A stretch of 64,000 nt of DNA from an uncultured Lentisphaeraceae bacterium (GCA_964386385.1 CAYLRN010000007.1:54374-118373), one strand, 5' to 3'. Counted from the first letter of the stretch, positions 23,639 through 34,292 are shown. The notes: generated from the letters alone by a model not told the origin. Translations and numbers: made by a program.

Positions 23639-23667
23639 TTGCCCGCACAATCCTCTTTGTGTATAAT
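23639..23667 (+). promoter_or_regulatory. sigma-70-like promoter TTGCCC-N17-TATAAT (conserved CTCTTGC…TTTGTGTATAAT architecture) for the gspF operon
   Basis: -35 at 23639-23644 and -10 at 23662-23667 with a 17-bp spacer. The same motif occurs at 33648, 45757 and 63854. Confidence 0.45.
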
Positions 23668-23726
23668 CCGTTCACGTACGATAGTCTAGAACGAAACAGT
23701 CAGGTCCTTTTAGTCGAGACTTCACC

Positions 23727-25052
23727 ATGGCAACATTCCAGTACATTGCAAAAGACGGCCAGGGCAACGAGCGCCGCGGCACGGTCGATGCCGGGGACAG
23801 GCAGGGCGCGATCGCCGCGGTCCGCGCGCAGGGGCTCATGCCCACGGCGCTGGGCGAAGTGAAGGGCGCCGCGCCCGCGCCCGCGCCTGCGGCCTCCAAG
23901 GCGGCCGCCAAGGCGAAGAAGGCCGCGCGTCCCGCCGCGAAGGGCGGCGCGATGAACAAGCAGATCAACATAAAGCTGCCGAAGTTCATGATGGGGCGCG
24001 TCAAGGCGAAGGACCTGACCGCCTTCACGCGCCAGCTGGCCACGCTCGTGAACGCCGGACTTCCCCTCATGCGCTGCATCGAGGTGATGAAGAAGCAGAA
24101 GATGGCGCCGGCGATGAGGGACTGCCTTGACGGCATTTCCGAGGGCATCGCCGGCGGCGCCACGTTCTCCGAGTCGCTCACGGCGTATCCGAAGGTCTTC
24201 GACAACCTGTACGTCAACATGGTGAAGGCCGGCGAGGCCGGCGGCGTCCTGGAAGTCGTCCTGAACCGCCTTGCCGAGTTCGCCGAAAAGGCGCAGAAGA
24301 TCAAGAACAAGGTGAAGGGCGCGATGATCTACCCGGCGGTCGTCCTCACCGCCGCGATCGGCATCACGGCGTTCCTGCTCGTGACGGTGATTCCGAAATT
24401 CCAGCAGGTGTTCAACGACATTCTCGGCGGCCAGCAGCTGCCGGCGATCACCGAGTTCGTCATGTCGATGTCCGACTACGTGCAGCACAACGGCCTCCAG
24501 GTGCTGGGCGCGGTCGTGGCGCTCTTCGTGATCTACAAGGTGCTGGGCAAGACGAAGCAGGGCGCGTATCTCCTGGACAAGATGCGCCTTTCCGTGCCGG
24601 TCACCGGCACTCTCGTCCGCCGAACGGCGATCGCGCAGTTCTCGCGCACGCTCGGCACGCTTCTCTCCTCCGGCGTCCCGATCCTCCAGGCGCTCGTGAT
24701 CGTCCGCGACACGACGGCGAACCTCGTCGTCCAGCGCGCGATCCAGACCGTCCACGACGCGGTGAAGGAGGGCGAGTCGATGACCGACCCGCTCGCGTCC
24801 TCCGGAGTCTTCCCGCCCATGGTAGTCTCCATGGTGCAGGTCGGCGAGGAGACGGGCGCGCTCTCCGACATGCTCACCCGCGTCGCGAACACGTACGACG
24901 ACGAGGTGGACAACGCCGTCGCCGGCATGACCGCCGCCATCGAGCCGGTGCTGATCATCTTCCTCGCCGTCGTCGTCGGCACGATCGTCATCGCCATGTT
25001 CCTCCCGATGATCAAGATCATCTCCTCCGTTTCCGGCGGCGGCGCCACCTGA
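23727..25052 (+). CDS. gspF: type II secretion system protein F / PilC-family inner-membrane platform protein
   Basis: 441 aa with duplicated T2SSF domains (…LATLVNAGLPLMRCIEVM… and …LGTLLSSGVPILQALVIV…) and three TM segments. Confidence 0.85.
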   Translation: MATFQYIAKDGQGNERRGTVDAGDRQGAIAAVRAQGLMPTALGEVKGAAPAPAPAASKAAAKAKKAARPAAKGGAMNKQINIKLPKFMMGRVKAKDLTAFTRQLATLVNAGLPLMRCIEVMKKQKMAPAMRDCLDGISEGIAGGATFSESLTAYPKVFDNLYVNMVKAGEAGGVLEVVLNRLAEFAEKAQKIKNKVKGAMIYPAVVLTAAIGITAFLLVTVIPKFQQVFNDILGGQQLPAITEFVMSMSDYVQHNGLQVLGAVVALFVIYKVLGKTKQGAYLLDKMRLSVPVTGTLVRRTAIAQFSRTLGTLLSSGVPILQALVIVRDTTANLVVQRAIQTVHDAVKEGESMTDPLASSGVFPPMVVSMVQVGEETGALSDMLTRVANTYDDEVDNAVAGMTAAIEPVLIIFLAVVVGTIVIAMFLPMIKIISSVSGGGAT

Positions 25053-25078
25053 TGCGGACGGCGGATAAGGAGTCCACC

Positions 25079-26248
25079 ATGAAGAGAAAAGAGGGCTTTA
25101 CCCTGATCGAGCTCCTGATCGTGACGGTCGTCATCGTCACGCTCATGGGCATCGTCTTCAGGCTTGCCGGCATCGGCTCCGGGGTGCGCGCGAAGAACGC
25201 CACCATCTCCCGCATCCAGAGGCTGGAGAACGCCCTTTCCGGCTACTACGCGGCGTTCGGGTCCTATCCCCCCGTGCCCCTGCACGGGCTGCAGGACATG
25301 AAGCTGAAGTGCGACGACATGGGGCTCCTCATCCCCAACTCCTCCGGAAGCGGCAGCTGGACGGCGAGCGGAAAGGCCGAGATGCAGCGCCAGGTTCGCG
25401 CCGTCTGCCGCGCCCAGCCCGTCGCCGCGTGCTATCCGTACGATGACACCGCCGAGAACAGGGACTACATCAATTCCCTTTCGTCCGACATCAAGGACAT
25501 GTGCGGCGACAGCGCCAACTACCCGGCGTGGGCCGCGCGTTCCGCCGCGTTCTCGAGCGGCTTCAGCGGGCTCACGCGCAACATATTCGGCAGCAAGCTC
25601 CAGGACGCGGCGGACTGGCAGGACGTCCGCATCTTCAAGTTCGGACTTCTCTCCTTCCTCCTGCCGCGCTATCTCTTCATGCTTGACGGCAAGGAAGAGT
25701 TCTACGACGACTGCAGGCAGTGGGAGGCCAACAACCGGAAGATCACGAACTTCGTGGACGGTAGGCAGATCGGCACGTGGCGGGAGGTCAAGAGGGCGCT
25801 CGGCGCCGGGGACGGCTCGGGCTCCGGCAACGACCCCGCCCTGGCGGCCATGATCACGAACCTTCCCTCGCAGGCCGTCTGCGCCCGCTGGATGCCGAAC
25901 TTCGCGAAGACGATTTGCGGCGGAAAGACGTTCTACGGCGTCGACACCGGCACCGGCAAGGCGTACAACAGCATTAACGACCCCACCGACTTCATGATCT
26001 ACTCGCCGTATTCCAACGGCTCCTCCGGCAACGCCTACATCCTCGACGGCATGACGATTCTCGACGGCTGGGAACACGACCTCTTCTACCATTCCGCCCC
26101 GCCGTACCAGAGCTACGTCGTCTGGTCCGCCGGACCCGACGGAAACACTTTCCCGCCGTGGATCGATCTCGACTCCCTCGAGAGCGAGGAGGCGCGCAAG
26201 ATCGCCGCGGACTGGATGAAGGACGACATCATCCACTTGTCCAACTAG
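25079..26248 (+). CDS. large prepilin-type (pseudopilin) protein, GspG-like with a ~250-aa insertion
   Basis: N-terminal MKRKEGFTLIELLIV prepilin cleavage/methylation motif. C-terminal LDGWEHDLFYHS…VWSAGPDG resembles the GspG DPWG-x-PY-x-Y…GADG motif. AAGGAG ribosome-binding site. Confidence 0.75.
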   Translation: MKRKEGFTLIELLIVTVVIVTLMGIVFRLAGIGSGVRAKNATISRIQRLENALSGYYAAFGSYPPVPLHGLQDMKLKCDDMGLLIPNSSGSGSWTASGKAEMQRQVRAVCRAQPVAACYPYDDTAENRDYINSLSSDIKDMCGDSANYPAWAARSAAFSSGFSGLTRNIFGSKLQDAADWQDVRIFKFGLLSFLLPRYLFMLDGKEEFYDDCRQWEANNRKITNFVDGRQIGTWREVKRALGAGDGSGSGNDPALAAMITNLPSQAVCARWMPNFAKTICGGKTFYGVDTGTGKAYNSINDPTDFMIYSPYSNGSSGNAYILDGMTILDGWEHDLFYHSAPPYQSYVVWSAGPDGNTFPPWIDLDSLESEEARKIAADWMKDDIIHLSN

Positions 26249-26290
26249 CGTCCGCGGTTCTGCGGTTTTTCAGAGAAGGCAGGTCAAGAC

Positions 26291-33106: not shown

Positions 33107-33637
33107 ATGGAACTGAACGAAGAGCAGAAGACGTCCGTCGCCCGCTGGTATGCGGACGGCGCGACGCTTGACGAAATGCAGAAGCGCATAAAGGCGGAAT
33201 TCGACATACATCTCACCTACTTCGACCTGCGAATGCTCGTCGCAGACCTCCCCCCGCCCGCCGAGAAGGAGGAGCCGCCCGCCGAACCCGCCGTCGCGCA
33301 GCCGGCTCCGGCCGACGTCCCGCAGGAGGCGCCGCCGCCGGAAGGGGGGGGCGCCGCCGAACCCGCGGACGAGGCTTCGCCCGTCGACGAGACCTCGCAG
33401 GAGGCGACGCCGATCGACGTCTCCGTCACGGTCGACCAGATCACGATTCCCGGCACGATGGCGTCCGGCGACGTCACGTTCAGCGACGGCAAGACGGGCA
33501 AGTGGTATCTGGACCAGATGGGCCGCCTCGGCCTTGGCGGAGACGGTCTCCCGCCCGGCTACCGCCCGTCCCAGCCCGACATGGTCCTCTTCCAGCAGCG
33601 CCTGATGGAGACCCTCCAGTCCCGCGGCCTCTGCTGA
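33107..33637 (+). CDS. hypothetical protein with a folded N-terminal domain, a Pro/Ala/Glu-rich linker and a C-terminal domain
   Basis: ORF with good coding composition, the last gene of the pseudopilin operon. No recognisable motif. Confidence 0.5.
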   Translation: MELNEEQKTSVARWYADGATLDEMQKRIKAEFDIHLTYFDLRMLVADLPPPAEKEEPPAEPAVAQPAPADVPQEAPPPEGGGAAEPADEASPVDETSQEATPIDVSVTVDQITIPGTMASGDVTFSDGKTGKWYLDQMGRLGLGGDGLPPGYRPSQPDMVLFQQRLMETLQSRGLC

Positions 33638-33647
33638 CCCTCCGCTC

Positions 33648-33676
33648 TTGCGTTCCCCTCGGCGTTTGTGTATAAT
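33648..33676 (+). promoter_or_regulatory. promoter TTGCGT-N17-TATAAT (conserved CTCTTGCGTTCCC…TTTGTGTATAAT motif)
   Basis: -35 at 33648-33653 and -10 at 33671-33676. The -10 hexamer overlaps the spurious ATG at 33668, which argues for the downstream start at 33704. Confidence 0.45.
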
Positions 33677-33703
33677 GCGAGGTGTTCAGAATTGGAGCAG
33701 ACA

Positions 33704-33907
33704 ATGGCAGAGCTTGTCCATAATGTGGTTATGTCTTTCAAGGCGGGCTGCGCTCGCTTTGTCCGCGGCTTTGTCGTCGAGTCTCGCCCCGTCCCCGAAC
33801 TTCAAAGCGTCGACCGCTATTTCGCCAATGTCGGAGAGCATCTTCTGAACGCCCGAAACCGCTTTGAGCGCGAGTACGTGGAGAATGTTCGCCATGCCGA
33901 CGAGTGA
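33704..33907 (+). CDS. small hypothetical protein (67 aa)
   Basis: GGAGCAGACA-ATG Shine-Dalgarno sequence. ATGCCGACGAGTGA overlap with the next gene, consistent with translational coupling. Low GC (about 55%). Confidence 0.45.
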   Translation: MAELVHNVVMSFKAGCARFVRGFVVESRPVPELQSVDRYFANVGEHLLNARNRFEREYVENVRHADE

Positions 33908-34292
33908 GACGCGCATAGCCGCCCGAAGCGAAAGCAGAGTTGAACTGTGTTATCAGCGCTCCACGCTTCCGACCAAGGAGAATGTCGAGGCATACGAGGC
34001 TTTTTGCCCAGGCGCTGCCAAGATTATGCTCGACATGGCGCAGTACGATCAGCATGAGCATTGGCAGAGCATAAGGCGCATATCCACGGCAGATCTTGTG
34101 GTTCGTCTGGTTGGAATGACGTTTTGCTTTCTTCTCTGCCTTGCGTTGATTTGCGGCGGAGTTTATCTCATGGCGACTGGGCATTACGTGACAGGAGCGG
34201 CGTCTGTCGCCGTTGCCCTTGTCGCCGTAATCGGATCTCTGGCCTATGGTGGGCGTCCGCCGGTCCAGCAGACGCCTTCGCACGAGAACTAA
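33894..34292 (+). CDS. DUF2335-like small membrane protein
   Basis: …PTKENVEAYEAFCPGAAKIMLDMAQ…HEHW motif resembles DUF2335 (P..L..YE…PGAA..I). Two C-terminal TM helices. Low GC. Confidence 0.5.
   Translation: MPTSETRIAARSESRVELCYQRSTLPTKENVEAYEAFCPGAAKIMLDMAQYDQHEHWQSIRRISTADLVVRLVGMTFCFLLCLALICGGVYLMATGHYVTGAASVAVALVAVIGSLAYGGRPPVQQTPSHEN

Follow-up and report, generated by a model that had tools for sequence, protein, structure and literature searches.

A GspF-pseudopilin cassette with a giant GspK-like protein in an uncultured Lentisphaeraceae bacterium and its relatives

Among the described systems, those closest to the locus reported here are the classical type II secretion system (T2SS), such as E. 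coli Gsp and P. aeruginosa Xcp, the type IVa pilus, whose minor-pilin operon FimU-PilV-PilW-PilX-PilY1-PilE forms a priming tip complex (PMC7541494), and the modular pilins, such as S. sanguinis PilB/PilC, CofB of enterotoxigenic E. coli (ETEC) and Thermus ComZ, which are expected at the filament tip and often bind ligands; GspK has been cited with them as a pilin carrying an inserted domain (PMC8179133). A T2SS has also been annotated in the cultured Kiritimatiella glycovorans (PMC5148204). Here we describe an operon, hereafter the cassette, at positions 23727-33637 on the + strand of a 64,000-nucleotide stretch of DNA (the window, 65% GC) from an uncultured Lentisphaeraceae bacterium (GCA_964386385.1, CAYLRN010000007.1:54374-118373). 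The cassette encodes GspF, seven pseudopilins, a GspK-like protein of 1042 amino acids (aa) and a 176-aa protein. We give a probability of roughly 0.55 to the reading that it supplies the whole pseudopilus, together with its platform protein, for a dispersed T2SS-type (type IV filament) machine whose other parts lie elsewhere in the genome; the machine probably serves the export of degradative enzymes by this lineage.

The cassette resembles the classical T2SS in that gspF is followed directly by G-like pseudopilins and then by minor subunits in the H, I and J positions and a protein of GspK fold that lacks Glu at position +5. GspG-type DPWG and C-terminal acidic motifs are present, and genes for an ATPase, a secretin and L/M-like proteins exist in the lineage. 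The differences lie mainly in composition. The cassette has eight pilin-type subunits (seven plus the GspK-like protein) compared with five, its GspK has grown threefold and is 1042 aa long as compared to ~280-330 aa in solved structures and 408 aa in a more distant relative (L095; we designate loci and contigs by L-numbers), one of its GspG-like subunits carries a helical insert of ~180 residues, and an extra G-like gene stands between the J-position and K-like genes. Moreover, the locus is without E, D, L/M and O genes, and none of its subunits scores at a curated equivalog cut-off.

Like the type IVa minor-pilin operon, the cassette groups minor pilins with one protein of more than 1000 aa, an arrangement thought to prime and cap the filament, and it shares with type IVa pili an I-position family that matches PilV in 23/23 members and a GspF that scores equally as PilC. 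The large protein of the cassette, however, is itself pilin-type with a GspK fold, whereas PilY1 is a propeller protein with a signal peptide; a disulfide-bonded major pilin is also missing when the sequences are read, and no PilT was seen. As in modular type IV pilins, the first pseudopilin (389 aa, or 398 aa from the opening of its open reading frame, ORF) and the 1042-aa protein combine a pilin module with extra modules. The added modules in the cassette, in contrast, match no Pfam domain or solved structure, and 1042 aa exceeds the 860-residue extreme of an InterPro-based survey (PMC8179133), a survey that would not detect this family.

Layout and identity of the cassette genes

The ten + strand genes form one run by their guanine-plus-cytosine (G+C) content at third codon positions, and all ten gene models match independent NCBI or Logan gene calls, all unnamed. 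Because neighbouring genes overlap by 4 nt or are separated by gaps of at most 44 nt, a single transcript is likely. The original prediction placed a single promoter before gspF, and a sigma-70-like candidate on the + strand, TTGCCC-17 nt-TATAAT with TTTGTG before it, does lie there at 23639-23667; it matches 10/12 consensus positions and is weak evidence, since the scan returned three such sites with 1.3 expected. A TTTGTGTATAAT box occurs upstream of gspF (23655-23667) and again after the 176-aa gene (33667-33678).

The first gene (23727-25052) encodes the 441-aa inner-membrane platform protein of the gspF/pilC type, which had been recognised as gspF in the original prediction and matches Pfam T2SSF at 4.6e-64, the domain being present as two repeats. 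In NCBIfam it scores 399.8 bits with the Thermus PilC model, 391.3 bits with the Myxococcus PilC model and 390.0 bits with the GspF model (cut-off 424), all below the respective cut-offs. It is 44-50% identical to the F proteins of coaE-rho-E'-E-F loci in other, lower-G+C bacteria.

We counted seven genes with the prepilin motif, not the eight that had been proposed, using a six-frame regular expression over the whole window (G-[FM]-T-x-x-E plus a hydrophobic stretch); all seven lie in the cassette. Six reach the gathering score of the Pfam family N_methyl, and the seventh (28320-28931) scores 18.2 bits vs 21.2. The first of them is the modular GspG-like pseudopilin (25079-26248, 389 aa, or 398 aa from the ORF opening at 25052). 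It has a pilin N-terminus, a weak T2SSG match towards the C-terminus (22.0 bits vs a cut-off of 21) and, in its predicted structure compared with solved structures, a pilin fold whose nearest relatives by identity are EpsG and PulG. Its helical insert of ~180 residues spans approximately residues 99-275. A large inserted domain, put at ~250 aa, had been claimed earlier; the insert found no match among solved structures.

The remaining G-like subunits are small. The 207-aa pseudopilin (26291-26914; N_methyl 35.5 bits) has a GspG/ComG-like N-terminus, a C-terminal GADG...DDVYSW and NCBIfam matches that are all sub-threshold, and the 195-aa pseudopilin (26916-27503; N_methyl 30.7 bits) is 28% identical to the 398-aa protein over 170 aa. 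The 164-aa protein (29444-29938; N_methyl 30.2 bits, T2SSG 19.0 bits) is the best sequence match to GspG, with 40.5 bits over model positions 1-105 in NCBIfam (cut-off 88.85). Two DPWG-like motifs had been reported, and both can be read in the sequences, as DPWGHPY in the 164-aa protein and as DGWEHDLFY in the 398-aa protein. The C-terminal pattern of GspG, GxDG...DD(I/V)xxW, ends the 398-, 207- and 168-aa proteins, and in the same reading the small subunits lacked the paired C-terminal cysteines that mark type IVa pilins.

Three pseudopilins occupy the positions of the minor subunits: a 284-aa protein in the GspH position (27469-28323; N_methyl 27.8 bits), a 198-aa protein in the GspI/PilV position (28335-28931, or 203 aa from the ORF opening at 28320; N_methyl 18.2 bits, cut-off 21.2) and a 168-aa protein in the GspJ position (28941-29447; N_methyl 27.8 bits, T2SSG 15.7 bits), whose C-terminus, GPDG...DDITSW, is GspG-like. 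Their families match NCBIfam models weakly throughout. The 284-aa family matches GspH (16/23), XpsH (14/23) and Verru_Chthon D (20/23), all below cut-off, as well as ComGD; the 203-aa family matches PilV (23/23), Verru_Chthon B (23/23) and GspI (10/23); and the 168-aa family matches Verru_Chthon C (22/24), GspG (20/24) and GspJ (3/24). HpsB and HpsC are also weakly matched by three pseudopilins. When profiles of four pseudopilin families were compared with PDB sequences, they matched only the common N-terminal helix, which gives no subclass assignment. With scores below the curated cut-offs, the H class, the I class and a third class before the GspK-like gene would correspond to the classical H-I-J-K order, in which gene order and the N-terminal sequence pattern suggest that the 168-aa protein is J. 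Compared with that order, an additional G-like gene precedes the K-like gene, and gspF is followed by three G-like genes.

The largest gene (29935-33063) encodes the putative tip pseudopilin of 1042 aa. The protein begins KRG/SALLIVLGF, and in the alignment (KRG/SALLIVLGFLSF) the conserved Gly is kept and position +5 is without Glu, as is the case in GspK. Pfam gave no match for the protein, and its sole NCBIfam match is GspK (16.5 bits, residues 6-64), which is weakly matched by 12 of the 30 family members compared. An AlphaFold2 model built with 30 homologues in the alignment (predicted local distance difference test, pLDDT, 74; predicted template modelling score, pTM, 0.74) has a long N-terminal helix (residues 8-65) and beta strands at the end. 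Judged by this model, the protein is a giant GspK, a GspK-type pilin fold with an inserted alpha-domain, in which ~700 extra residues are added to the GspK core; the original description of the gene as GspK-like is thus supported by fold. The extra domains cover about residues 390-960. The beta-sandwich matches were short of a convincing Z. A PilY1-type adhesin was considered as an identity for this protein and rejected, the fold being GspK-type and having no C-terminal beta-propeller. The gene next to it, as predicted, encodes the 176-aa accessory protein (33107-33637), in which we saw no Pfam match and, by eye, no signal peptide or membrane segment.

At least 691 homologues of the 1042-aa protein were found, and each named one is a hypothetical protein from metagenome-assembled genomes (MAGs) of Kiritimatiellae/Kiritimatiellia. 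A family profile run against 1.84 billion representatives matched 1221 clusters at E <=1e-3 and 444 clusters at 50% identity at E <=1e-30, and the top 150 clusters are all full-length, at ~1000-1200 aa. The family scores below all Pfam gathering scores and NCBIfam cut-offs, and our literature search found no paper on Kiritimatiellae pseudopilins, Verru_Chthon cassettes or this family; the array was rightly called uncharacterised.

Conservation in relatives and the sites of partner genes

A scan of one genome per species gave 147 confirmed cassette loci, 80 of which were fetched for synteny; gene presence was counted over 84 loci and ORFs were clustered over 87. The fetched loci come from animal gut, rumen and faecal MAGs, mostly labelled Kiritimatiellae. 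Seven contigs (L013, L038, L043, L064, L080, L081 and L083) are binned as Lachnospiraceae, Clostridium, Methanomethylophilaceae, Muribaculaceae, Alistipes, Clostridiales or Faecalibacterium, and they are probably mis-binned, because the cassette lineage is otherwise uniform. The recurrent gene order is gspF, the 398-type gene, two small pseudopilins, the 284-type and 203-type genes, two small pseudopilins and the large gene, with flanks that vary between loci. The 207-aa, 195-aa and 164-aa families are present in 77, 73 and 80 of the 84 loci, respectively, and the 176-aa gene directly follows the large gene in 32 of them, while gspF is absent from its usual position in 11 of the 57 loci with enough upstream sequence. 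In about half of the loci the large gene is followed by a further pseudopilin of ~300-355 aa (~325) with an N_methyl domain and a weak DUF1559/SBP_bac_10 match, for example in L012 (13271-14278), L088 (18038-18934) and ~44 others; the window cassette is without it. Clustering of ORFs revealed nothing conserved outside the cassette and no candidate for a hidden ATPase, secretin or peptidase.

The gene for ProC adjoins the cassette in 12-14 loci. In the same locus pairs, best identities over high-scoring segment pairs are 70-92% for GspF and 74-87% for ProC, as compared to 28-76% (typically 30-68%) for the pseudopilins and 29-52% for the large protein. These lower identities indicate that the filament parts diverge far faster than their neighbours, for which relaxed constraint, co-evolution with cargo and pressure from phage or host on exposed parts are possible causes.

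The original prediction reported that a GspE ATPase, a secretin and proteins of the GspC/L/M class are not in the window, and our searches agree: Pfam scans of every sizeable ORF gave no T2SSE, Secretin, PilM/N/O or GspL/M match, and tblastn with the GspE, secretin and PilM/N/O-like proteins of relatives found nothing in the window. The reported absence of the prepilin peptidase PilD holds as far as Pfam goes, with no Peptidase_A24 in the ORFs of the window; none was found in relatives either, and no dedicated seed-based search was made for it. A PilT-type retraction ATPase was not seen in the fetched loci, where no systematic search was made.

Partner genes are encoded in relatives at other sites. 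In L002 and L084, housekeeping genes separate the cassette from a gene for GspE (MshEN + T2SSE) 5.5 kb downstream, which has no gspF of its own; only in these two loci is gspE within 10 kb of the cassette, and elsewhere it is an orphan gene. In L036, whose large protein is 45% identical to that of the window, the order is secretin-coaE-rho-gspF-cassette, with the secretin (PF00263, 1e-35) 2.5 kb upstream of gspF. Close GspE orthologues, 70-90% identical, were taken from the metagenome scan. The orthologous gspE of L091 (79% identical) stands beside a minus-strand cluster in which PilM_2-like and T2SSM_b-like genes flank an unassigned 216-aa gene, and which also holds genes for a 737-aa secretin (4.3e-31) and a BspA-type leucine-rich-repeat (LRR) protein. 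The more distant relatives L095 and L100 have a canonical gspE-F-G-H-I-J-K-L-like-M-like operon, in which GspE is 70-72% identical, G is 149 aa and K is 408 aa (T2SSK_1st, 2e-18); the end of the L095 locus gave a weak, partial secretin-like match (tblastn, 26% identity over 219 aa, E 3e-15).

The missing partners had suggested a device distinct from the T2SS. Because relatives carry the partner genes elsewhere, a few of them within 2.5-5.5 kb, this suggestion finds no support, and the unusual feature is the composition of the pseudopilus rather than a missing motor. In this lineage, the genes of the machine are normally scattered. Orphan gspE genes without gspF complement a cassette gspF without gspE. 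The rho-gspF junction is common to L036 and the coaE-rho-E'-E-F loci; the latter may represent an older arrangement from which the ATPase genes have since been displaced, and the coaE-rho-gspF junction in L036 hints at an ancestral arrangement with tandem ATPases in the Planctomycetes-Verrucomicrobia-Chlamydiae (PVC) group.

Some further features of these loci deserve mention. In the metagenome loci L110, L128 and L132, which come from lower-G+C bacteria, rho is followed by ATPase genes of ~573 aa and ~560 aa and by gspF, with no pseudopilins after it; among the three, coaE lies upstream of rho only in L132. The rumen contigs L091 and L093 have rpoN (sigma-54) immediately after the orphan gspE, and there may be a sigma-54 link to expression of the machine. 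The BspA-LRR protein of L091 (11998-15249) has 1083 aa and lies directly beside the secretin, and a BspA-type LRR ORF (PF13306, 1.1e-27) is also found in the window at 2221-3078, where the sequence codes poorly; surface proteins of this kind may be exported by the machine or act as its partners.

Proposed mechanism and rival explanations

We infer the processing, assembly order, choice of major subunit and cargo as follows. A prepilin peptidase encoded elsewhere would process the GspK-like protein and all seven prepilins with the G-F-T-x-x-E motif, cutting each behind its conserved Gly. The 1042-aa protein and the subunits in the H, I and J positions (27469-29447) would form the tip-initiating complex, beneath which GspF, powered by the orphan GspE ATPase, may polymerise the GspG-like filament subunits, namely the 164-aa, 207-aa, 195-aa and modular 389-aa proteins. 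The resulting short filament under the secretin would push folded periplasmic proteins out of the cell, and the likely cargo consists of glycoside hydrolases and sulfatases, this being a polysaccharide-degrading lineage.

Several points weigh against a dispersed T2SS-type machine. GspF is no nearer to the GspF model than to the PilC models, and it is only 30% identical to the F protein of the canonical operon in L095. All subclass assignments of the pseudopilins lie below curated cut-offs, a Foldseek comparison of the 1042-aa model with PDB gave nothing at E <=0.001, and the sequence profile of its family gave no match in PDB. To judge from their sizes, a tip of ~110 kDa and the 389-aa subunit look too bulky for a piston inside a secretin, and the rapid divergence of the pseudopilins and the tip protein is a pattern that better fits exposed pilins. 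The partner genes are known from relatives, none having been placed in the source genome; a search for GspE homologues toward that genome yielded nothing but variants, 97-100% identical, from a single common species. The putative link between the L091 cluster and the cassette is one of GspE orthology without physical linkage, and the two secretins near T2SS parts of relatives are non-orthologous (27% identical). In addition, L094 has a second pair of T2SSF (424 aa) and T2SSE (628 aa) at 723-4599, ~6 kb upstream of the orphan gspE; at least some relatives therefore hold more than one type IV filament machine.

A tentative alternative is that the same machine builds a surface type IV pilus-like fibre, with the GspK-like tip as an adhesin or glycan-binding protein and the 389-aa protein as a decoration of the shaft, for attachment to mucin, plant fibre or cells. 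Modular pilins, with their grafted modules, are found widely and are regarded as ligand binders exposed at the tip (PMC8179133), and the large size of both the tip protein and the 389-aa subunit would fit such a fibre, as would the much faster divergence of the filament parts than of GspF and ProC, the equal scores of GspF on the PilC and GspF models, and the separate PilM-like gene in the L091 partner cluster, as in type IVa pili. However, the fold of the tip is T2SS-type GspK, and no PilY1-like propeller was found; the subunits have GspG-type motifs with no disulfide-bonded D-region in their sequences; PilT was not seen in the fetched loci, as far as this goes without a systematic search; and Pfam gave no lectin or adhesin domain, with beta-sandwich matches below a convincing Z.

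It appears doubtful that the pseudopilus has turned into a bulky, fast-diversifying, outward-facing organelle in gut Kiritimatiellae, that is, an extracellular fibre binding or capturing polysaccharide, mucin or partner cells; this idea follows if a tip of 110 kDa and a shaft subunit whose insert measures 28 kDa are unable to act as a piston in a standard secretin. If true, T2SS and type IV pili would have a third functional class between them, with genes scattered round the chromosome.

Verru_Chthon cassettes pair pseudopilins with one very large protein, and a role in polysaccharide export or surface motility instead of protein secretion, in parallel with the cyanobacterial Hps pseudopilins or the uncharacterised four-gene Verru_Chthon cassettes of Verrucomicrobia, is improbable for our locus. 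Verru_Chthon A-D (TIGR02600, TIGR02598, TIGR02599 and TIGR02596) likewise belong to the PVC lineage and consist of a large protein with three of prepilin type; weak matches to D (20/23), B (23/23) and C (22/24) come from the families at 27469, 28335 and 28941, respectively, and three pseudopilins have the weak HpsB/HpsC matches given above. The matches of the window proteins, however, score far below the curated cut-offs, at 29.2/51.4 for B, ~14-19/256.5 for C and 15.3-24.7/70 for D, and fall chiefly in the common N-terminal helix. Furthermore, Verru_Chthon_A is matched by only 1/30 members of the large-protein family (E 0.12), HpsA is not matched, the cassette unit includes gspF and four further pseudopilins, and no glycosyltransferase or polysaccharide-export genes are conserved beside it.

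A self-contained new fibre or secretion device working without a GspE-type ATPase, secretin or prepilin peptidase could be imagined because partner genes are neither in the 64-kb window nor conserved beside the cassette in the 80 loci, but it is highly improbable, given the orphan gspE genes of the same lineage, in cis in L002/L084, the secretins that relatives have near the cassette or gspE, and the fact that, to our knowledge, GspF-type platforms and class III signal peptides occur only in ATPase- and peptidase-dependent machines.

Surrounding sequence and implications for Kiritimatiellae

The upstream neighbour of the cassette is the unrelated glp module, as the original prediction had it, with a glpT-like transporter of the major facilitator superfamily and a glycerol-3-phosphate dehydrogenase fusion. 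According to Pfam, the other genes of the window include those for sugar and glycerol metabolism, transporters, a glycoside hydrolase family 106 (GH106) rhamnosidase, a sialidase-like BNR protein and an Eco29kI restriction-modification pair. On the downstream side, the TTTGTGTATAAT copy after the 176-aa gene precedes an ORF of ~67 aa (start 33705) and one of 142 aa (33864-34292); the latter has no Pfam match and, by eye, a C-terminal membrane segment. The 142-aa ORF was rejected as a part of the cassette, being present only in L001, a contig of the same strain, and the segment 33655-34292 appears to be an insertion peculiar to this strain, placed between the cassette and proC. Of the proposed extent of 23639-34292, the cassette therefore stands, and the end at 34292, which takes in this ORF, does not. 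Two genes of 320 aa and 350 aa (35335-37220) were considered as accessory parts and rejected, having no Pfam match and no homologue in the fetched loci.

Elsewhere in the window, a segment of lower G+C (0.595) at 48231-49879 encodes the Eco29kI-family endonuclease (PF09517, 1.6e-56) and a C-5 cytosine DNA methylase (PF00145, 1.4e-60) in overlapping frames. Another stretch of lower G+C (0.563) at 16023-17804, between genes for an Fe-alcohol dehydrogenase and a GNAT protein, encodes a protein of 593 aa in which Schlafen/AlbA_2 and HATPase_c_4 (RecG C-terminal-like) domains are combined; it may be a mobile or defence-related insertion. The intergenic regions at ~895-1900, 3000-3430, 37500-37930 and 41990-42390 give near-identical peptides in several frames, e.g., SRPTELALQPPFP and GRAPARP, which suggests a family of G+C-rich repeated elements; these repeats may be a cause of short-read contig breaks in the same strain.

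Kiritimatiellae are common polysaccharide degraders of the rumen and gut and are mostly uncultured, and we know of no described route by which their large enzyme repertoires are exported. The kind of system found here is known; what is new is a set of eight pilin-type subunits, a GspK of 1042 aa, a novel insert within a GspG, and a conserved cassette that stands apart from the genes E, D, L, M and O. Annotation tools that need co-located E, D, F and G miss or split such a system in PVC genomes. The cassette occurs in at least 147 species-level genomes, and its identity as a giant GspK, predicted from the model, gives the 1042-aa family a testable role. The cassette also offers a natural experiment on the mass that a T2SS pseudopilus can carry at its tip and along its shaft, a question that matters for the piston model and for where the line between T2SS and type IV pili is drawn.

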